From the IMG/VR virus record IMGVR_UViG_3300029952_000010, positions 4,368-68,367 of that record: a stretch of 64,000 nucleotides of DNA. One strand, given 5' to 3'. The notes under the pieces are model-generated. The model ran no database searches. It was not told the origin of the DNA and saw only the letters and a list, made by a program, of their open reading frames with translations. The translations under genes and the position numbers were made by a program. Below are positions 3,518 to 64,000 of the stretch, piece after piece. Source of the DNA: a virus. The stretch's first letter is position 1. Every line of letters starts with the position of its first letter.

Positions 3518-4675
3518 ATGAATTATTTAAAAATCTCCAACAAGGGCTTAATCTGCCCTGAAGACTTGATGCTCATAGGCTCAAGCACAAAACGTGAACA
3601 ATCAGACAAAATTGGAATGTTTGGTAGTGGGTGGAAATACTCATTGGCATGGTTGCTTCGTAATGATTGTAAGCCAATTATTTTTAGTGGTAAAAATCAA
3701 ATTGAAGTTGATTTTGCCGTTAAGATGCACCGAACAAATGCAGTTAATATAATTACTGTGGATGGTAAAGAAACATCTTTAACTACTGAAATGGGGCCAA
3801 AATGGACAGGATGGATGGCTATTAGGGAGGTATTGTCAAATGCAATAGATGAGGGGGATCACTCCATAACAACAGCGTGGATGCCTGAATTTAAAGGATT
3901 TGAAGATACTACTACTATTTATATACCCATGAGTAGTGAGTTATCGGATGTGATGTTAAAATTTGATAGTTATTTTTCTTTTTACCGAAAAGAAAGCTAT
4001 TCAAATGAAGATTGCAGAATGTTTGTTAAAACTGAAAAAAGCAATCTTAATATTTACCGAAAGGGTATTCGCTGTTTTGATACGAATACTCGCTCGTTAA
4101 TTGATTTTGATTTTAACGATATTCATATAAGCGAAGATAGGCTTACTTCTGATACTTATATCGACAAAGCTATTTGCGATATGATTAAAAAGGGATTGCC
4201 AAGTAATATACTTAAATTAATCATACTTGAGGAAAAGCATTCATGGTTGCCCGTTACATTAACAGACCCACTATTGCAAAACCTAATTGAATTAGCGCAA
4301 TCAGGAGAAAACTTTACAACAGAAACATTGCAAAGATTAGGCGGAATTTTGTTTTCAATGCCTAATTCATTGGTAGTTCCTGCGTCATGGTTTGAAAAAC
4401 TTGAAAGTTTAGGGTTGGTAAAATCACCATTTGAAAAATTAGGTACAAGTCATAAATTTATACGCACCGACTTAAAAGACCTAAAAGGTATTGAGTATTA
4501 TTTGAAGGGTATGGGGTTTTCGTTTAATTTAACATCCGGTAAAAGCGAAACGGACATTTTTTATAATAACGGTAACGTTTACGTAAAAGATGACACCACC
4601 TATGATGATAAAATGCTAATAGGTAAAATGTTCTATGGTATGAGTGTTGATGAAATAGCGTCTATTATAATATAA
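3518..4675 (+). CDS. GHKL-type ATPase domain protein (permuted motif order)
   Basis: ISNKG, IGMFGSG, then AIREVLSNAIDEG. Confidence 0.7.
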   Translation: MNYLKISNKGLICPEDLMLIGSSTKREQSDKIGMFGSGWKYSLAWLLRNDCKPIIFSGKNQIEVDFAVKMHRTNAVNIITVDGKETSLTTEMGPKWTGWMAIREVLSNAIDEGDHSITTAWMPEFKGFEDTTTIYIPMSSELSDVMLKFDSYFSFYRKESYSNEDCRMFVKTEKSNLNIYRKGIRCFDTNTRSLIDFDFNDIHISEDRLTSDTYIDKAICDMIKKGLPSNILKLIILEEKHSWLPVTLTDPLLQNLIELAQSGENFTTETLQRLGGILFSMPNSLVVPASWFEKLESLGLVKSPFEKLGTSHKFIRTDLKDLKGIEYYLKGMGFSFNLTSGKSETDIFYNNGNVYVKDDTTYDDKMLIGKMFYGMSVDEIASIII

Positions 4676-16516: not shown

Positions 16517-17046
16517 TACAATGTTGTATTTAGTATAATCTGCGTACCCCTATCTAATGCATCCTGTGCGCCTGTATAATTAGCGTACAAAACGGCTACC
16601 TGAGAATTTGACATTTCAATCAAAAGGTCAATTGACGATTTACGGTAAACTTTATCCATACGAGTTGACGGAAGCGTATCTGTTAACCTTTGCACCTGAA
16701 TATTGTATAATCCTTGCTGTAAGAAGCGATTTGTAGCAATATCTGCCTCTGCGGTATAAATACTACCACCTACAGGAGTTATTGGCGTAAGCGTCATTAC
16801 AATCGTTAATGCGACGTCTTGTGTAAGTCCGGATATGGTGATTACATCGGGATTGCCGCCACCAATAGGAAATGCGATGGGATTTGGATAGCCTGTTAGT
16901 GGCGTATTGTCTGATTGAAGTATGGTAAGTGTCCTGTTTGAAAAGTTAGTCTTACTATCTCCCCCAGAATACGGCGAAGGATCGATTAGCTGAAACTGCG
17001 TAGGGTCAGCAAGTGGTACGTAAGATATTGATGCAGCGAAACTCAT
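16516..17046 (-). CDS. Putative virion (tail hub-like) protein
   Basis: Beta-rich N-terminus with helical C-terminus; tail-module position. Confidence 0.55.
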   Translation of the reverse strand: MSFAASISYVPLADPTQFQLIDPSPYSGGDSKTNFSNRTLTILQSDNTPLTGYPNPIAFPIGGGNPDVITISGLTQDVALTIVMTLTPITPVGGSIYTAEADIATNRFLQQGLYNIQVQRLTDTLPSTRMDKVYRKSSIDLLIEMSNSQVAVLYANYTGAQDALDRGTQIILNTTL

Positions 17047-17375
17047 ACTTTACTAGCTTGGTATTGTTGTAAAAGGTATGAAGCATAAGCTATAGGAACA
17101 GCTATCTCAACGGACAATGTATCTGTATTAGCCCACCCGGATGGCAGCGACCTAAACGTGAAAATTGTTGTCTGTGTCCCGTTAACTCCTATTCCATTTG
17201 TAACATTTACTATGTTATTTTGAATAGTTGCTGCAGTAGATGTAGTAGTATCATAAACTGTGGCTAAACCTGTTATATCGAAATCATAGCCCGAAAGCCC
17301 AGATATAGTTAAAGTCTTTGCTACTACATCTAATGAAGTAGTAGCCAAATTTGATTTACCGAGTAAAACTCTCAT
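17043..17375 (-). CDS. Putative virion protein
   Basis: T/S-rich beta protein. Confidence 0.55.
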   Translation of the reverse strand: MRVLLGKSNLATTSLDVVAKTLTISGLSGYDFDITGLATVYDTTTSTAATIQNNIVNVTNGIGVNGTQTTIFTFRSLPSGWANTDTLSVEIAVPIAYASYLLQQYQASKV

Positions 17376-17412
17376 ACCTCATATTAAGTTTTGTTGTTGT
17401 AAATATAATGCT

Positions 17413-17510
17413 TATATTTGAATTAACAAACGCCATGCAGGGCATAGTTAAAGATATTTTAATCCTTATTGGCGGATAGGACTGCATTCCTTGAAGCCGA
17501 TAAGGATTTT
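17413..17510 (+). promoter_or_regulatory. TATATTTG promoter plus structured 5' leader
   Basis: Loop ATGCAG complementary to loop CTGCAT within AATCCTTATTGGC/GCCGATAAGGATT stem. Confidence 0.6.
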
Positions 17511-17517
17511 TAATTAT

Positions 17518-17973
17518 ATGCCATCAGGATTCTACGAAAGGAAAAATTTAAAGCCAATAATCAAAAGGTTTAATGAAAAATACGAAATAAATAAAGAAAC
17601 AATGTGCTGGGATTGGAATGGTTCTCTGGAAGGAGGGGGATATGCGTCAATTAGAGTTAACCGAAAAATGGAATTGGGGCATAGAATTTCTTATTCGTTA
17701 TTTATAGGTGAAATACCACACAAAATGGTAATTTGCCATAAGTGTGATAACACTAAGTGCGTGTCTCCCTTTCACTTGTTTTTAGGAACTCAACAAGAAA
17801 ATGTAAGCGACTCTCTTAAAAAAGGGAGAAGACCTAATGAGAAACACCCAAGTATGTATTCATATATAAAAAAAGGCTGTAGGTGTGAAGATTGTAAAAA
17901 GATAGCCAGTATAAATTCAAAAGAGAAATATAATAGAAAAAAAAATAAAATTAATCAAATTTCAAACCTATAG
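17518..17973 (+). CDS. Free-standing HNH homing endonuclease
   Basis: CWDWNG, HRISY, CHKCDN..CV.P.HL..GT..EN, GCRCEDC. Confidence 0.9.
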   Translation: MPSGFYERKNLKPIIKRFNEKYEINKETMCWDWNGSLEGGGYASIRVNRKMELGHRISYSLFIGEIPHKMVICHKCDNTKCVSPFHLFLGTQQENVSDSLKKGRRPNEKHPSMYSYIKKGCRCEDCKKIASINSKEKYNRKKNKINQISNL

Positions 17974-19219
17974 ATTCTCCTTTTTTAATTACTTCCTGCG
18001 CCTTATCGATAGCACTTGTAGGAATATCTAATTTAAAAGCCTCTATTTTTTCTTTGTATTTTTTAGCCTTTTCCAAACACTCTTCAATACTATCTCCAAT
18101 TGCTATTAAAGCCCCTATATTGTCAAAATCGGAAAAACGGGGTATTACATGATACGTGTCGTCAATTATACAATAATTTCTTAATTTGACCCATCTTGAT
18201 ATGCTGTCAGGAAAATCAATATTATACCAACGGTTTTCTGCCCAAGGACTGTCAAGCATAATCTCTATGCCATACTTGCCCTCAAATACAGGTTGTATCA
18301 TTTTACCATCAGAGCCATGCCATATTATCTCGGATAAGTTTTGCAGCATTTCCATATATAATTCCCCTGGTGGGCTGCCTAATCGGCATGTAATATCAGT
18401 TATCTTGCTAACCTTATCTTTTCCGCACCTGCCCTCGGTATGAAAGAAATTCCTGTAACGGTGTTTTTCTAACTCAGGGGCTATAACATCGTTAAATTCG
18501 GTAATTAGCGGTGAGAATTTTTTATATTCTTTAACTACGCAACAATAGCTAACATCTTTAACCTCATATCCGAATATAGTCTTATCAGGAAAATTCCCGT
18601 CAATACAGTATCCGTCATAACCATATTCAACAATATCGTCACCATCGATAGGGTCAACAATAAGCCATTCAAGTTGCTTACTTGCAGCGCCTAATTTATA
18701 TTCTATTTCATCTAAATAAGCCTCCGATGTTTTATAGTTAGAATGATGCCAAGTTTCACCGTCACCCCTATATAAATTGGTTTTTATCCATTTATCATCA
18801 GTTTTTTGCAATGCTTTTCGCAATGCATCTATGCCGATTATTTGCTTCATTTCAGGCTGTGCAAGACCTTTTGATTTAAAGAATTTATTTGATTTGTACC
18901 GTTGCAGTTCAAACTCGTCGCCAAGTCGGCTCCCCCAAACACGTTTCCCTAAACTTTCAAGGAGTAACTGAGTTTCACCAAAATAAATGGACGGGAAAAT
19001 AAACACATCAACTTCATCTATATATGCCTCCCAACTTTCAACCCGTTCAACCTTTGGTATGCCTCGACCTATCCAATCGTTTTTACTTTTTGGATACTCT
19101 CCTCTCCATTCCGAAAAGTAGTAAACATGCTTAAAATCACGGGATAAACGAACGGCTAATGATAGGTATAAACCATCATCAAATACTAAAGCAATTTTAT
19201 CTTTTACTATTTCGTTCAT
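17951..19219 (-). CDS. ATP-grasp ligase (PurD-like fold)
   Basis: ELQR, KWIK, EYGYDG, TDITCRLGSP pattern of PurD-like ATP-grasp enzymes. Confidence 0.7.
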   Translation of the reverse strand: MNEIVKDKIALVFDDGLYLSLAVRLSRDFKHVYYFSEWRGEYPKSKNDWIGRGIPKVERVESWEAYIDEVDVFIFPSIYFGETQLLLESLGKRVWGSRLGDEFELQRYKSNKFFKSKGLAQPEMKQIIGIDALRKALQKTDDKWIKTNLYRGDGETWHHSNYKTSEAYLDEIEYKLGAASKQLEWLIVDPIDGDDIVEYGYDGYCIDGNFPDKTIFGYEVKDVSYCCVVKEYKKFSPLITEFNDVIAPELEKHRYRNFFHTEGRCGKDKVSKITDITCRLGSPPGELYMEMLQNLSEIIWHGSDGKMIQPVFEGKYGIEIMLDSPWAENRWYNIDFPDSISRWVKLRNYCIIDDTYHVIPRFSDFDNIGALIAIGDSIEECLEKAKKYKEKIEAFKLDIPTSAIDKAQEVIKKGESIGLKFD

Positions 19220-54336: not shown

Positions 54337-56640
54337 TTAAAACAACTTCTCGTAATAAACAGCCTTATTTTGCCCTAATTTAGATAAAATAGTATTCTTT
54401 TTATCACACCACCTTAATAAAAAAGATCTAACGGTAGGTTCTTTAATATTTAACTCTTTCCCTATTTCAATTGCTTTTAATGCCGTGAAGTTTTCCGGCA
54501 ATGCTTTGTAAAATTCGGCAGTTGCTCCAGTTAGCTTATCGGCAGGGTTTACAGGTGTTAAAATCTTCATAGCCTTATTCATATTACCTAAAAAGTACTC
54601 CGTCAATCTGATAGCACGTTCCATACTTTGAACGCTAACGGCATTCCTGAAATCATCAGGATTATTCATTATTTCAATTATTAACGAAAACCTTAGACAA
54701 TAATCTTGGTACTTAGCAATGATACCCTTTACATTATCCGTTACGGCTGAATTGTATTTACGGTTCTTATTGTTAAACCATTCCGCATAAAGCAACTCGG
54801 CTTCGTTGGTTAACTGAAATGTCCTTAAATTAGACCTATGCTGGTTTACCTTATCAATCAAACCCCAATACTCTTGAGTGAGCGCAGCAGGCATTTCATA
54901 TTTAACCCAATCCTGTTTTAATTGCGGTTCAGGATATAGAAATAAAAACCTATGATAAAAACCATTATGCTCATTATCGCTTGTACTTAATGCGTCTAAA
55001 ACCCCGGGCTGTATACCACCTATAATAGTGCAAAACGGGTTTTCAACCTTATCTTCATCTCGACTAATCCGCTGCATTAATATTGGCGATCCGCTCCAAA
55101 GTTCCAGCCATTTTTGTAATTCGTCACCGTCTCCGTATCGATTCATTCTTTTCATAAACCCGCTGAACTCATCAGCGTAAACACAGCAACCCATTTGATT
55201 AAATGACAGTATTTTAATTACCATTTCAATAGTGCTGTCCTTAATTAAAAGTTGACGCATTATAGGTTTTTTAGGCTCGTTGATATTATCGCCTTTCTTT
55301 TGATTTTTAAATATTGCGTACGCCTCTGTGTAGTCTTGTTTTTCTTTTACGTATTCCTTATAGGTAAAAGTATCAATCATTTCTAACGGCTTAAAAATAG
55401 CCTTTAGAGCAGGTGTTTTAGACGCTCCAGGCGGTGCGACAATAGTGAGATATAATATTGGTTTAACAAAATAACCATTGTTTGCTTGCAATTGCGCAGC
55501 GTTACCTATTAATGTAGAAATAGCCCCCAAAGCAGCACCAGCCAAATATTCATGCTGTATAGTCTGAGCATTTATGAAATTTAATATCTCGTCAGGGAAA
55601 ATATCATAAGGGAATTTTAATCTGTCGGGAGTTATTAGGGGTTGATTAGTTACTGGTTGTTGTTCGATTAATTCAATTTCAGCACTATCGCAAAGCATTT
55701 TTAATTCTTGAATAGCTAAAATCCAGTCCTTATCATTTTTATAATAAAGTATTCGGGACGGACTTAAATTCCATGAAGTATCATCCTTGTCAACCCGGTC
55801 ATTAAAGGATGGGAATCCCGGAATTGATGAAGTGAATAATTGTAAATTTTTAGTCCCATAATAAGCCTTTGCCGAATAGGATGCTTTTGAACCGATACGC
55901 AATAACGGCACAAATTTATCCTTTTGCTTTGTGCGATACTTTGTAGCTGCCTCAAGGCCTATACTACTCAATATATGACTAAAAACATCGTCAGAACATT
56001 TACTATCAAATTGGAATAAAATGTTTTCATATTCTAAAGGGTATTCTTTTACAATATTCGATTTTTGGCTTTGTAGCTGCACATACTTATCAAAAGTATT
56101 AGCTACCGATACCAATAATTCAAATTCATCATCCGTCAATTCTTCAATATCTGAAAAGTCATTTGATACCATTTCATAACCGGGTGTAGGCGAACAATAA
56201 GATAGTGTACCACCTGTATAAATAGCGATAACTTCAGATCCGTTTACTTCTCTTGCTAAACCAACCTTTGATTTTAGTTTAGGGTATTTGATGTAAACAT
56301 GGTAACCGGCGTTTCGGGTTTTTTCGATACATACCTTTGATAGTATACTATCATCAACCGAGGCAATGCCTTTCAACCATAAATCGAAAACTGTTTTATC
56401 TTCTGTATTCTTAAGGTCAAAATCAATACATCCAAACGGCGAAAATAATTTTAATGCCATTCCGTTAGCGGTATCAATGCTTTTAACCCATTCGGAAAAT
56501 GTTGCCTCTGTATAATTGGTATCGGTTATTTCGCTGTGTGCTATCCAGTGGTTGGTAGCACTTTTCATTTCAGCATCCCAGATCAAAGGGATAGGTTTAA
56601 GACCTAACTTAAACAAATCAATAAATACACTTTCGTTCAT
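54337..56640 (-). CDS. Prim-Pol primase fused to DUF3987-type helicase
   Basis: IDFD and GYH (AEP); APPGASKTP, DEFSG, IIGGIQP, NGFYHRFLF. Confidence 0.85.
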   Translation of the reverse strand: MNESVFIDLFKLGLKPIPLIWDAEMKSATNHWIAHSEITDTNYTEATFSEWVKSIDTANGMALKLFSPFGCIDFDLKNTEDKTVFDLWLKGIASVDDSILSKVCIEKTRNAGYHVYIKYPKLKSKVGLAREVNGSEVIAIYTGGTLSYCSPTPGYEMVSNDFSDIEELTDDEFELLVSVANTFDKYVQLQSQKSNIVKEYPLEYENILFQFDSKCSDDVFSHILSSIGLEAATKYRTKQKDKFVPLLRIGSKASYSAKAYYGTKNLQLFTSSIPGFPSFNDRVDKDDTSWNLSPSRILYYKNDKDWILAIQELKMLCDSAEIELIEQQPVTNQPLITPDRLKFPYDIFPDEILNFINAQTIQHEYLAGAALGAISTLIGNAAQLQANNGYFVKPILYLTIVAPPGASKTPALKAIFKPLEMIDTFTYKEYVKEKQDYTEAYAIFKNQKKGDNINEPKKPIMRQLLIKDSTIEMVIKILSFNQMGCCVYADEFSGFMKRMNRYGDGDELQKWLELWSGSPILMQRISRDEDKVENPFCTIIGGIQPGVLDALSTSDNEHNGFYHRFLFLYPEPQLKQDWVKYEMPAALTQEYWGLIDKVNQHRSNLRTFQLTNEAELLYAEWFNNKNRKYNSAVTDNVKGIIAKYQDYCLRFSLIIEIMNNPDDFRNAVSVQSMERAIRLTEYFLGNMNKAMKILTPVNPADKLTGATAEFYKALPENFTALKAIEIGKELNIKEPTVRSFLLRWCDKKNTILSKLGQNKAVYYEKLF

Positions 56641-57275
56641 AGTGCTATTTGTTTTAAAATAGCATCCTTTAAACGTCCTTTAACATTAGGCGTTGTAACA
56701 AGCCATTGTAAGTATCTTATCTCATCGTCAGATTTTAACGAACTGATTTCACGACCTGCATATTTACCGAAATTAAGTGATACAGGTTGGTTTGTTGTTA
56801 GATTTGTTATCCAGTAACCGCAATGCACACACCTTGCGGTTATGTTTGGCCCGGATTTGTTTACCTTAAATTCATTAATAGTAGAACACTTTTGGCATAC
56901 AACATCCTTAGTCTTTGTAGCCATTGCAATTGCATAAGTTTCTTCAGTAAAATATTCCCAGTGCCAGTCACTCCATGTATCAAAATATAAAGGATAAAAT
57001 TTATTACCGTTTTTAACAAAGCAATGTTCAATACTTTCTGATCCATCTATAAAAACACGATAGGCACGATAAGTTAAATTGCCTTCAAGTAATATGATTC
57101 TTTGCTTTTTAGACGCTTCAATAGCTTGCGTTACTATTATATCCGATGCAACGTTCTCACAGATTTTGGCGTAGCCTATACCTTTTAAATTGAAACTGTG
57201 CTTTTCGGGGTAATAGATAAATTCATAGTCCATCAACTTAAAGAAGTCGTGGTACTGTTTATCACGTATGTTCAT
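56637..57275 (-). CDS. Hypothetical protein with Zn ribbon and C-terminal FGKY (DUF3820-like) domain
   Basis: CQKC...CVHC; LNFGKY.G..I......YL.W. Confidence 0.65.
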   Translation of the reverse strand: MNIRDKQYHDFFKLMDYEFIYYPEKHSFNLKGIGYAKICENVASDIIVTQAIEASKKQRIILLEGNLTYRAYRVFIDGSESIEHCFVKNGNKFYPLYFDTWSDWHWEYFTEETYAIAMATKTKDVVCQKCSTINEFKVNKSGPNITARCVHCGYWITNLTTNQPVSLNFGKYAGREISSLKSDDEIRYLQWLVTTPNVKGRLKDAILKQIAL

Positions 57276-57283
57276 GTTTTTTA

Positions 57284-57556
57284 TTAACTAATTTTCCATA
57301 ATTGAAGTGAGTTGAAATAAGTTTTTTTACCGGTTTTATCAGTCCACGGACGACCTTTCAAGTTAAAGTCAACAGATACACTTTCCCCTTGTCTAACATT
57401 ATCTAATAAATCGCAACGATCATTAATAGCTTCGATTTTTATAAATTCAGGATATTGAGGGTTTTCCGCATACTCAATTATTAACTCCCTTTTCCTTAGT
57501 TTGTCAGAAACTTGTTCTGTGTTACCAACTTCATGTACGATACCTTGTAAATTCAT
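57284..57556 (-). CDS. DUF3127-family single-stranded DNA-binding-like protein
   Basis: QYP..I..E...D..., FNLKGR.W......YFNSL..WKI. Confidence 0.85.
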   Translation of the reverse strand: MNLQGIVHEVGNTEQVSDKLRKRELIIEYAENPQYPEFIKIEAINDRCDLLDNVRQGESVSVDFNLKGRPWTDKTGKKTYFNSLQLWKIS

Positions 57557-57564
57557 TTTAAAAA

Positions 57565-57655
57565 AATAAAGGCTTAAAACCAGTTCGATATGTTGAAGCT
57601 ATCTCCCCGGTCTTAAGCCCGTTAATATTTTGTTACGCCCTTCAACTGCGTTTTA
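57565..57655 (-). promoter_or_regulatory. Structured 5' leader of SSB gene
   Basis: Loop GTTGAAG complementary to loop CTTCAAC within GGCTTAAGACCGG/CTGGTTTTAAGCC stem. Confidence 0.6.
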
Positions 57656-57694
57656 TTGAAGTACTAATATACAAATTTTATCGCATACTAAGAA

Positions 57695-57965: not shown

Positions 57966-58343
57966 TTATCTCAATTGCCACGGAACTAAATACTCATTGC
58001 CTAACTTTGGAAACCCTAATTTCTTACGCCATAAAGTTGCGTTATTTCTTACAACATCAAGCGAATGATTAGGTAGTAAATCAGCTATGTATAGGCATTT
58101 TTTACCAATATTGGCGAATAATATCAATCTTTCACATCCGTTAAGACCACGGTGTTGTTTAATTTTTACCGGCTTTAACTTCTTTAACGTAGGTGGCGGC
58201 AATATGATTGTCATTGTTTCCCGTGGTGCTTTGTTTCGGTTAATTTCGTAACAGTAAAAGCAATTACGCTTTGTGCATTCATGGGTATGTTGACCTGAAT
58301 TTATTTCGCCTTCCTTTCGTGATGTGGTTGATGTTGGGGTCAT
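57966..58343 (-). CDS. Hypothetical protein
   Basis: HxC...CxxC and HTH-like end. Confidence 0.55.
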   Translation of the reverse strand: MTPTSTTSRKEGEINSGQHTHECTKRNCFYCYEINRNKAPRETMTIILPPPTLKKLKPVKIKQHRGLNGCERLILFANIGKKCLYIADLLPNHSLDVVRNNATLWRKKLGFPKLGNEYLVPWQLR

Positions 58344-62244: not shown

Positions 62245-62432
62245 ACTTCCCCCCTTTCCACATTCACCCCCTTAAACCCCCAAAGCATATCCTGATATTG
62301 CTTCATTTTTTTAAACGCCCTTAATGCGTTTTTAAAGTCGCCATAAGCGGTACGAAAGTCAGCCTCCCACTGCCAGTCGTAGTATTTGGTTAGGATTTCG
62401 GTGTAGGTCATGGTTAGTTCCATTTGCAGCAA
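62241..62432 (-). CDS. Hypothetical protein
   Basis: Operon packing. Confidence 0.55.
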   Translation of the reverse strand: MLQMELTMTYTEILTKYYDWQWEADFRTAYGDFKNALRAFKKMKQYQDMLWGFKGVNVERGEV

Positions 62433-63166: not shown

Positions 63167-64000
63167 CTAAACAGTTTCTTTAAAGAAATTAACAAATGTA
63201 ATATGCCCGAATTTGCCCTTAGTAAGCCCAATAATTTGAGCAATAGTATAAGATTTCTTTTCAACGCTATTGGAAGTTACAAAGGCCTTAGTCCCAAATG
63301 AACATGCGCCTGTTATTGAACGATATGCTTCGATGCCTTGCGAAAATGTTAATACATGCGTTAATGGCAGTCCTTTAAATTTAGATGTATCCCTATTGCC
63401 TATTTTATATAGCAAGTTTTCACGAGCTTCTTTTAGATTATCGCCATGTGCCCATTTATTGTTACCATCTGTTACAAGGTAAAACTCCTTTTGTTGCTGT
63501 ATTTTCTTTACCTTATAAACATTGCCCTTTTGGTGAGTTATTTCTGTAAATATGCCATCAGCTTTTATATATTTATTACCCCACGTTATCGGAGGTATAA
63601 CTACATTTTTTCTTACATGTTTATAATTTAAACCAGAGCGTAAATAAAGGTCGCCACCAACCGTAGGGTTGAATCCATCAGGCAGGGACGTTACAGAGCC
63701 TAAATAAAGGTCGCCACCAACCGTAGGGTTGAATCCATCAGGCAGGGACGTTACCGAGCCTAAATCAAGGTAGCCACCAACCGTAGGGTTGAATCCATCA
63801 GGCAGGGACGTTACAGAGCGTAAATAAAGGTCGCCACCAACCGTAGGGTTGAATCCATCAGGCAGGGACGTTACAGAGCGTAAATAAAGGTCGCCACCAA
63901 CCGTAGGGTTGAATCCATCAGGCAGGGACGTTACAGAGCCTAAATAAAGGTCGCCACCAACCGTAGGGTTGAATCCATCAGGCAGGGACGTTACCGAGCC
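63167..64000 (-). CDS. LRR-like repeat protein (5' truncated)
   Basis: Frame open from window end: (GSVTSLPDGFNPTVGGDLYL)n then ADGI, AHG, YRSITGACSFG domain; track shows only the last 82 aa. Confidence 0.8.
   Translation of the reverse strand, partial: GSVTSLPDGFNPTVGGDLYLGSVTSLPDGFNPTVGGDLYLRSVTSLPDGFNPTVGGDLYLRSVTSLPDGFNPTVGGYLDLGSVTSLPDGFNPTVGGDLYLGSVTSLPDGFNPTVGGDLYLRSGLNYKHVRKNVVIPPITWGNKYIKADGIFTEITHQKGNVYKVKKIQQQKEFYLVTDGNNKWAHGDNLKEARENLLYKIGNRDTSKFKGLPLTHVLTFSQGIEAYRSITGACSFGTKAFVTSNSVEKKSYTIAQIIGLTKGKFGHITFVNFFKETV
63641..64000. repeat. Coding tandem repeat, 60-bp unit, at least 6 copies
   Basis: Near-identical units differing at 4 positions. Confidence 0.97.

Follow-up and report, generated by a model that had tools for sequence, protein, structure and literature searches.

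A pseudoknotted 5′ leader RNA family matching no Rfam family precedes an HNH endonuclease gene and a replication module in a Bacteroidota-type phage

What is the structured sequence that stands directly before a free-standing HNH endonuclease gene in a phage genome, and what does it have in common with a sequence of the same layout on the opposite strand, before the first gene of the replication module? The question is raised by a stretch of 64,000 nucleotides (nt) of viral DNA (IMG/VR record IMGVR_UViG_3300029952_000010, positions 4,368 to 68,367), hereafter called the window. A preliminary description of this sequence had proposed a leader RNA with two complementary loops at 17428-17520, and all of the features that it named are present there. 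The window contains two homologous elements of about 87 nt, copy 1 at 17426-17512 on the plus strand and copy 2 at 57567-57655 on the minus strand, the latter preceding the gene for a DUF3127 protein that resembles a single-stranded-DNA-binding protein (SSB). Together with two members from metagenome loci, which bring the total to four and support the proposal of a recurring structured leader with a loop-loop pseudoknot and a terminator-like hairpin, these leaders are an uncatalogued pseudoknotted 5′ leader RNA family of Bacteroidota-type phages. The general kind, a kissing-loop leader built on a terminator, is already known, and it is this family that is new to the catalogues. We consider it almost certain that the fold and the family are genuine.

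The members share a common order of parts, namely a promoter-like box, a hairpin (H1), an A/U-rich linker of 15-18 nt, a 13-bp stem (P2) enclosing a 4-bp stem (P3), and a U-tract, and the gap from P2 to the start codon is 9-15 nt. The loop of H1 (L1) is complementary to the loop of P3 (L3), and the two can form a kissing loop of 6-7 bp. In copy 1, the putative -7 promoter box TATATTTG is located at 17413-17420; such boxes are called promoter-like here by comparison with TAnnTTTG, which we take to be the Bacteroidota-type -7 promoter consensus and which is named in papers on Bacteroides promoters. H1 is formed by arms at 17430-17434 and 17441-17445 with five pairs, one of them a C.A mismatch, and its core GCC[ATGCAG]GGC at 17432-17443 presents L1, ATGCAG, at 17435-17440. 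The single-stranded linker of 15 nt at 17446-17460 contains an AAA at 17450-17452 that is invariant in the alignment. The terminator-like hairpin at 17461-17508 consists of the P2 arms AATCCTTATTGGC (17461-17473) and GCCGATAAGGATT (17496-17508), a purine-rich internal loop with GGAU (17474-17477) opposite UGAA (17492-17495), and P3, AGGA[CTGCAT]TCCT, at 17478-17491 (arms 17478-17481 and 17488-17491), whose loop L3, CTGCAT, at 17482-17487 is the complement of L1. This hairpin by itself has a folding energy of -23.2 kcal/mol. A U/A-rich tail of 9 nt (17509-17517) lies between P2 and the ATG; six U residues fall within the 10 nt after P2, and the final two letters of P2 are likewise U.

Copy 2 repeats this order on the minus strand. 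A promoter-like box, TATATTAG, at 57664-57671, for which an alternative overlapping box, TAAAATTTG, is found at 57672-57680, is a candidate promoter element and is followed by H1 at 57635-57651 with L1, GTTGAAG, at 57640-57646, and by the A/U-rich linker at 57620-57634. The terminator-like hairpin at 57571-57619 is built from P2 arms at 57607-57619 and 57571-57583 and encloses P3 and its loop at 57588-57602, with L3, CTTCAAC, at 57592-57598; by itself it has an energy of -24.0 kcal/mol. The U-tract and tail occupy 57557-57570, with nine U residues within the first 10 nt. In all four members a TAnnTT-type box precedes the leader and a start codon of that strand follows it.

Neither fold is expected by chance. 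The minimum free energies of copy 1 and copy 2 are -29.3 kcal/mol (z = -4.6) and -31.0 kcal/mol (z = -5.1), respectively, and none of 200 shuffles of either copy folded as well. A covariance model with copy 1 as its only sequence (R1), run unfiltered across the whole window, placed copy 2 third, below copy 1 and the antisense strand of copy 1 itself; copy 2 is thus the best non-self match in the 64 kb, with 25.6 bits and E=7e-4, in agreement with the preliminary description, which had seen the same layout on the minus strand at 57565-57655. Conversely, a model built from copy 2 and the two metagenome members, L051 and L102, with copy 1 left out (R2) recovers copy 1 with 63.4 bits and E=3e-13 in a search of the window and 80 metagenome loci (400,355 bases), in which nothing other than the members scores above 17 bits. 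A scan for the architecture only, defined as a stem of at least 9 bp with a U-rich tail whose inner loop has its 6-nt Watson-Crick complement in an upstream hairpin loop, returned exactly the copy 1 and copy 2 sites from both strands of the 68-kb genome and 0-1 sites from each of 10 block-shuffled genomes. Two motif matches on the minus strand, at 62315-62330 and 58026-58043, were considered as extra copies and discarded, both being inside coding sequence. As a separate observation, an apparent intergenic gap at 62245-62413 on the minus strand is occupied by a 57-codon open reading frame (ORF); a motif within it, AAAACGCATTAAGGGCGT, resembles H1 and receives 17 bits from R2.

The four sequences, among which copy 2 and L051 are clearly closer kin, were aligned to R2; the loop-loop helix, which is absent from R2, was added, and H1 was extended to five pairs. 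Over the whole structure 97-98% of the alignment cells are paired, none of 500 shuffles reaches any of five measures, and pairing falls to 25-45% when the partners are slid by 1-3 columns. All cells of P2 are paired (100%), and 10 of its 13 pairs have changed on both sides, as have all four pairs of P3 (93.8% of cells paired). H1 is more conserved, with one of five pairs changed on both sides and 90% of cells paired; its pair at columns 5:21 is A-U in three members and G-C in L102. The loop pairs of the kissing helix are ATGCAG/CTGCAT, GTTGAAG/CTTCAAC, TGTGATG/CATCACA and TTACCG/CGGTAA; four of the six pairs have changed on both sides, two (U-A and G-C) are invariant, and all 24 cells are paired, an outcome that has a probability of 2.9e-4 under column-wise permutation of the 3′ letters. 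The loop-loop covariation that was to be looked for in homologues is therefore present. When the two copies are compared with each other, the "complete covariation" first described holds for P2, in which each of the 13 pairs has a change in one or both letters and none has lost its pairing, and fails for the loops, in which only two of six positions differ and copy 2 has an extra pair. Of the landmarks first listed, GATAG lies in a different structural register in the two copies. Across the four members, 24 columns are invariant, of which 12 are unpaired: A4, A22, AAA at 29-31, U34, GGA at 53-55, AA at 74-75 and U89.

The alignment contains nine G.U cells, which would be A.C mismatches on the opposite strand. 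In all four members the fold is therefore available only to the sense strand of the downstream gene, and the signal is more likely to be read in RNA than in duplex DNA. The cognate loop duplexes have energies of -6.0 to -7.5 kcal/mol, whereas all 12 non-cognate combinations are at -1.1 kcal/mol or weaker; for the two copies in the window, cross-pairing is worth about 0 kcal/mol versus -6.3 and -6.5 kcal/mol for the cognate pairs. The idea that the loop sequence provides gene-specific addressing is not supported by these results. Because the two loops of each member pair with each other, the loop sequence looks like a freely drifting internal pairing, which at most insulates the copies from one another, and not like an address for a partner in trans.

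Rfam 15 gave no match in the window at the gathering threshold; at E up to 10 there were six weak matches below threshold in 17380-17540 and three weak ones in the four loci, none of the latter on any of the four elements, in line with the preliminary description, which had been able to name no Rfam family. DUF2693-FD RNA (RF02926) was rejected as a candidate: with 15.8 bits (E=0.45) against a threshold of 44.5, it covers the copy 1 hairpin only and has no match on the other three members. The C4 family is absent from the six weak matches at 17380-17540 and from the three in the four loci, and a link to C4/CI antisense systems thus finds no support in Rfam even at E up to 10. A literature search returned DUF3127 only in an unrelated phage genome report and nothing that describes this leader.

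How widely is the leader distributed? A metagenome scan with the DUF3127 protein yielded 412 stretches, 257 of which encode relatives, and the best 80 were retained. Among these 80 loci, R1 found the L051 member at 2403-2491 (35.6 bits) and the L102 member at 74-163 (34.8 bits), and both leaders directly precede the DUF3127 start codon. L051 shares the whole module with the window, with identities of 76% for DUF3127, 67% for the middle protein and 68% for the primase. L102 shares DUF3127 only (70% identity), its helicase/primase being 31% identical. In a quick tree of DUF3127 proteins, the window and L051 are sisters (Shimodaira–Hasegawa-like approximate likelihood ratio test, SH-aLRT, 89) and L102 stands apart on a long branch, and the presence of the leader requires two changes on this tree. 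The closest viral relative, L001, whose primase is 69% identical, keeps the TATATTAGTA box in a short leader before DUF3127, and this leader has no fold.

No further member was found. The complete records of L001-L003 gave one 17-bit match, which is not a member, and the element is absent from the five HNH relatives, the eight viral DUF3127 loci, the 10 further viral records and the four cellular genomes that were searched. A pattern scan of viral contigs returned 41 loci, none of them genuine, and two stricter patterns returned none; a relaxed pattern matched at least 105 stretches, and among the matches listed 104 were due to chance, each with at most 10/13 P2 pairs versus 13/13 in the members. 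All 18 loci from a pattern scan of genome contigs were chance matches. In 151 genomes of one Bacteroidota family (that of G004), three weak matches of 27-29 bits proved false when inspected. A Bacteroidales genome contig (L145, 3845-3905, minus strand) has 19 letters identical to H1 of copy 1 (AACGCCATGCAGGGCATAG); they belong to the end of a secE-like frame just before nusG, and we judged them a coding coincidence. Independently of the leader, most cellular-type DUF3127 loci (in L053-L130) share a strongly conserved non-coding region about 140 nt upstream, including the blocks GTGTGGAAAACTTGCAT and GCGAATTTATGAATTAAAT. This region, for which only a weak structure is predicted, is very unlike the phage leader and may be a promoter/operator or another RNA motif.

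What might such a leader do? The reading that we favour, with chances that we would call about even, is a cis-acting attenuator that regulates its gene at the level of transcription termination. The P2-P3 hairpins of the four members have energies of -23.2 to -25.7 kcal/mol and are followed by 6-9 U residues in the next 10 nt, so that a stable GC-containing stem followed by a U-tract, the feature of an intrinsic terminator, is found in each of them. Since the gap between P2 and the ATG is 9-15 nt, there is no room for a promoter between them, and since no co-directional gene lies upstream of copy 1, its hairpin is not the terminator of an upstream operon. A host-type promoter would start the transcript a few bases before H1, P2 and the U-tract would act as an intrinsic terminator at which most transcripts end after about 85-90 nt, and expression of the downstream gene would depend on read-through. 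Since H1, the 5′ arm of P2 and P3 are transcribed before the 3′ arm of P2, the kissing loop can form first, and it may set the speed and completeness of P2 closure, as in the guanidine-IV riboswitch, and thereby a level of read-through. Because the loop letters drift and covary and are not conserved, the kissing loop is more likely to be a built-in structural part, and if there is tuning, it would be exerted by a factor at the invariant linker or the GGA/RAA internal loop and not through a small-ligand pocket. The proposed outcome is control over the dose or timing of the replication module and of the selfish HNH gene, together with insulation of neighbouring transcription.

Several points weigh against this attenuator. 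Termination and the transcript ends are predicted from the sequence and the fold. The kissing loop and P2 are compatible as secondary structures, and since they are not mutually exclusive, whether the kissing loop hinders or helps termination is a guess. Inspection by eye, with no systematic search made, showed no conserved pairing that could replace P2, and the classical terminator/antiterminator switch suggested at the outset is not supported. A full match to TAnnTTTG is found in copy 1 only, the other three boxes being off by one or two letters, and L102 has a break in its U-tract (UACUUAUUU). A strong terminator right before essential replication genes also requires some means of release. 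As to the family itself, it has four members only, both outside members came from looking upstream of DUF3127 and are thus a biased sample, and the alignment used to score the nested helices had itself been fitted to those helices, though not to the kissing helix. A leader peptide, sought by eye in the four members, is represented by a 14-codon frame from an AUG in L1 of copy 1, with nothing comparable in the other three.

The attenuator may be extended, tentatively and with prospects well below even, to a portable, ligand-free and programmable class of Bacteroidota phage attenuators, a cassette of promoter and leader in which the kissing loop decides between termination and read-through, the loops have diversified against mis-pairing and a factor sets the switch. 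Such a cassette could head replication genes and selfish nuclease genes alike, and a phage or host factor, for example DUF3127 on the invariant A-rich linker, would set the switch, so that the expression of replication and homing genes would follow how much single-stranded-DNA-binding protein is free.

The association with DUF3127 brings to mind a different function, which we regard as unlikely: a translational operator or mRNA stabiliser that acts autogenously in the manner of T4 gene 32. DUF3127 would bind the A/U-rich linker and tail, P2 would be structural, and the pseudoknotted 5′ end would nucleate binding that represses or protects both the DUF3127 mRNA and the HNH mRNA. Three of the four members directly precede the gene for this SSB-like protein, an association that is biased by the route by which members were found, and L102 has kept the leader together with DUF3127 in spite of its divergent helicase/primase. 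The linkers and tails contain UUAA(A/C) motifs as well as the invariant AAA, and, provided that the promoter boxes are genuine, the fold would occupy the very 5′ end of the transcript. The gene 32 operator consists of a 5′-terminal pseudoknot and, after it, an unstructured stretch rich in UUAAA/UAAA in which the ribosome site lies (PMC535899). The T4 operator extends over more than 40 nt, however, whereas the spacer between P2 and the AUG is 9-15 nt here; copy 1 precedes a nuclease gene and not an SSB gene; the U-run right after a GC-closed stem resembles a terminator; and phage-type DUF3127 loci without the leader exist in L001, L052, L065 and the eight viral loci.

If the terminated RNA of about 85-90 nt were itself the product, acting in trans as a c4/CI-like antisense RNA, as a protein decoy or in replication, with read-through expression as a by-product, then the promoter-like box, the compact stable fold and the terminator would form the complete layout of a small-RNA gene, and two copies on opposite strands of one genome would fit it. 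We consider this improbable, since the sole variable loops pair mutually and leave no free address, in 4/4 members the element immediately precedes a start codon of its own strand, and the C4 family does not match; words of 6-7 nt are too short for a meaningful search for trans targets. A riboswitch, in which the invariant unpaired letters and the conserved H1 stem form a pocket for a small ligand, such as a nucleotide-pool signal, that stabilises or breaks the kissing loop and so switches termination, would account for the 12 unpaired letters among the 24 invariant columns, has its terminator expression platform already built into the fold, and is paralleled by guanidine-IV in architecture. 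It is nevertheless very unlikely in our estimation: with its 6-7 bp and -6 to -7.5 kcal/mol the kissing loop is a long one, and its letters vary, unlike those of loops that form a ligand site, the family has very few members and is restricted to phages, HNH and SSB-like genes hint at no metabolite, and no Rfam riboswitch model matches. Least probable by far is an element that works at the DNA level, its nested inverted repeats serving as protein sites, as a replication origin or as a single-strand initiation signal. Copy 2 does lie directly upstream of the SSB-like/primase module, and nested inverted repeats are typical of origins. The G.U cells that become A.C mismatches on the other strand speak against such an element, as does the orientation, which follows the downstream gene every time; the repeat sequences are wholly different between the copies, so that no common DNA-binding protein could read them, and copy 1 lies amid structural genes.

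The surroundings of the two copies differ in kind. The source is a complete virus record of 68,367 bases with direct terminal repeats, and the window has a GC content of 38%. The sequence occurs in 24 runs, all of them peat-metagenome DNA and none of them RNA, and comparison with four of these runs gave only identical fragments with zero variant letters, some parts being uncovered. Eight proteins around the two copies were annotated with Pfam and PHROG. The gene after copy 1 (17518-17973, plus strand, ATG at 17518) encodes the HNH endonuclease (Pfam HNH_3, E=3e-10; PHROG endonuclease, E=2e-31; the query, 17509-17973, was three codons longer than the frame that starts at the ATG). It is free-standing among structural genes, and the ORF layout places both adjacent genes in the opposite orientation. 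In the region 17043-19219 of the window, the HNH gene and its leader on the plus strand are flanked by minus-strand genes of 110 aa and 422 aa, and at its 3′ end the HNH gene shares 23 nt with the end of the 422-aa gene. Gene and leader together have the appearance of a homing-endonuclease cassette that entered a late operon; relatives of the 422-aa neighbour were sought in viral contigs, with none found, and no empty site is demonstrable.

Copy 2 heads the replication module, the first gene of which is that for DUF3127 at 57284-57556 on the minus strand (Pfam DUF3127, E=7e-23; PHROG single-strand DNA-binding protein, E=1.5e-21). It is followed on the same strand by an ORF of 212 aa at 56637-57275 and then by a DUF3987 primase/helicase gene at 54337-56640 (DUF3987, E=2e-55). 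Elsewhere in the genome, a tandem array of 60-bp units begins at 63634 and runs to 64000, past the end of the window, which is also the end of the genome; it has 6.1 copies with 96% matches and no indels, and each unit carries a small GC hairpin and a T-run on the minus strand. The array lies within a minus-strand open frame at 63167-64000 and adjoins the direct terminal repeat of the genome. It could encode a 20-aa protein repeat or represent iteron-like repeats close to the genome end.

Structured cis-regulatory RNAs of Bacteroidota phages are almost unexplored. Here, covariation supports a tertiary loop-loop contact from just four sequences that match no Rfam family, and one leader family heads a replication module and a homing-endonuclease gene alike. 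If the kissing loop tunes the embedded terminator without a ligand pocket, the leader would be a simple, orthogonal and re-addressable part for dosing expression.

Known phage systems share some of these features. The lambdoid PR′ - 6S RNA - tR′ unit has a constitutive promoter and, no more than about 100-200 nt beyond it, a strong terminator, released by Q, that acts as a gate for phage genes. The proposed order of promoter and terminator is alike in the present leaders, and the occurrence of two copies on opposite strands recalls putL and putR of HK022. The lambdoid and put leaders, however, have no loop-loop pseudoknot, and the put RNAs lie upstream of terminators and do not contain one; no Q-like or N-like antiterminator is found among the eight annotated proteins near the copies, and no binding site for such a protein was identified. 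The P1/P7 c4 and P4 CI RNAs are short structured phage RNAs whose loops pair with boxes of the same transcript, resulting in premature termination. They are processed and act on outside boxes, whereas both complementary loops lie within one compact fold here, and the context is not that of an immunity region. Free-standing homing-endonuclease genes of T-even phages (I-TevI, mobE and seg) have their own promoter and an RNA structure that lowers expression, and in this respect the selfish nuclease gene with its putative promoter and leader resembles them. The T-even hairpins are simple and hide ribosome sites or terminate transcription, and we know of no conserved pseudoknot family that they have in common with replication genes. 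The T4 gene 32 operator likewise combines a pseudoknotted 5′ leader with an A/U-rich single strand before a phage single-strand DNA-binding protein gene, and the homing-endonuclease gene segG abuts its pseudoknot (PMC535899). That pseudoknot, however, is of the H-type and about 28 nt long, with an unstructured operator of more than 40 nt after it and no terminator, whereas the leaders described here form a kissing complex based on a terminator-like hairpin, with 9-15 nt between this hairpin and the AUG, and one of the copies precedes an HNH gene.

Judged by architecture, the nearest known analogue appears to be the guanidine-IV riboswitch (mepA motif), which is also a 5′ leader in which the loop of the first hairpin kisses the loop of the terminator hairpin, a contact that is paired in 24/24 cells here. 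The kissing-loop letters of guanidine-IV are conserved and ligand-dependent, whereas four of the six loop pairs covary in the phage leaders, the helix is 6-7 bp long and no ligand is implied. The genes also differ, being HNH and DUF3127 genes and not genes for guanidine export or detoxification, and no Rfam model matches the leaders, the presence of the mepA model in Rfam 15 being unchecked. In guanidine-IV, the contact between these two hairpin loops is a steric obstacle to a complete terminator stem, and read-through results (PMC11611296). If the attenuator proposed here is true, the phage leaders would offer a natural comparison for this mechanism.

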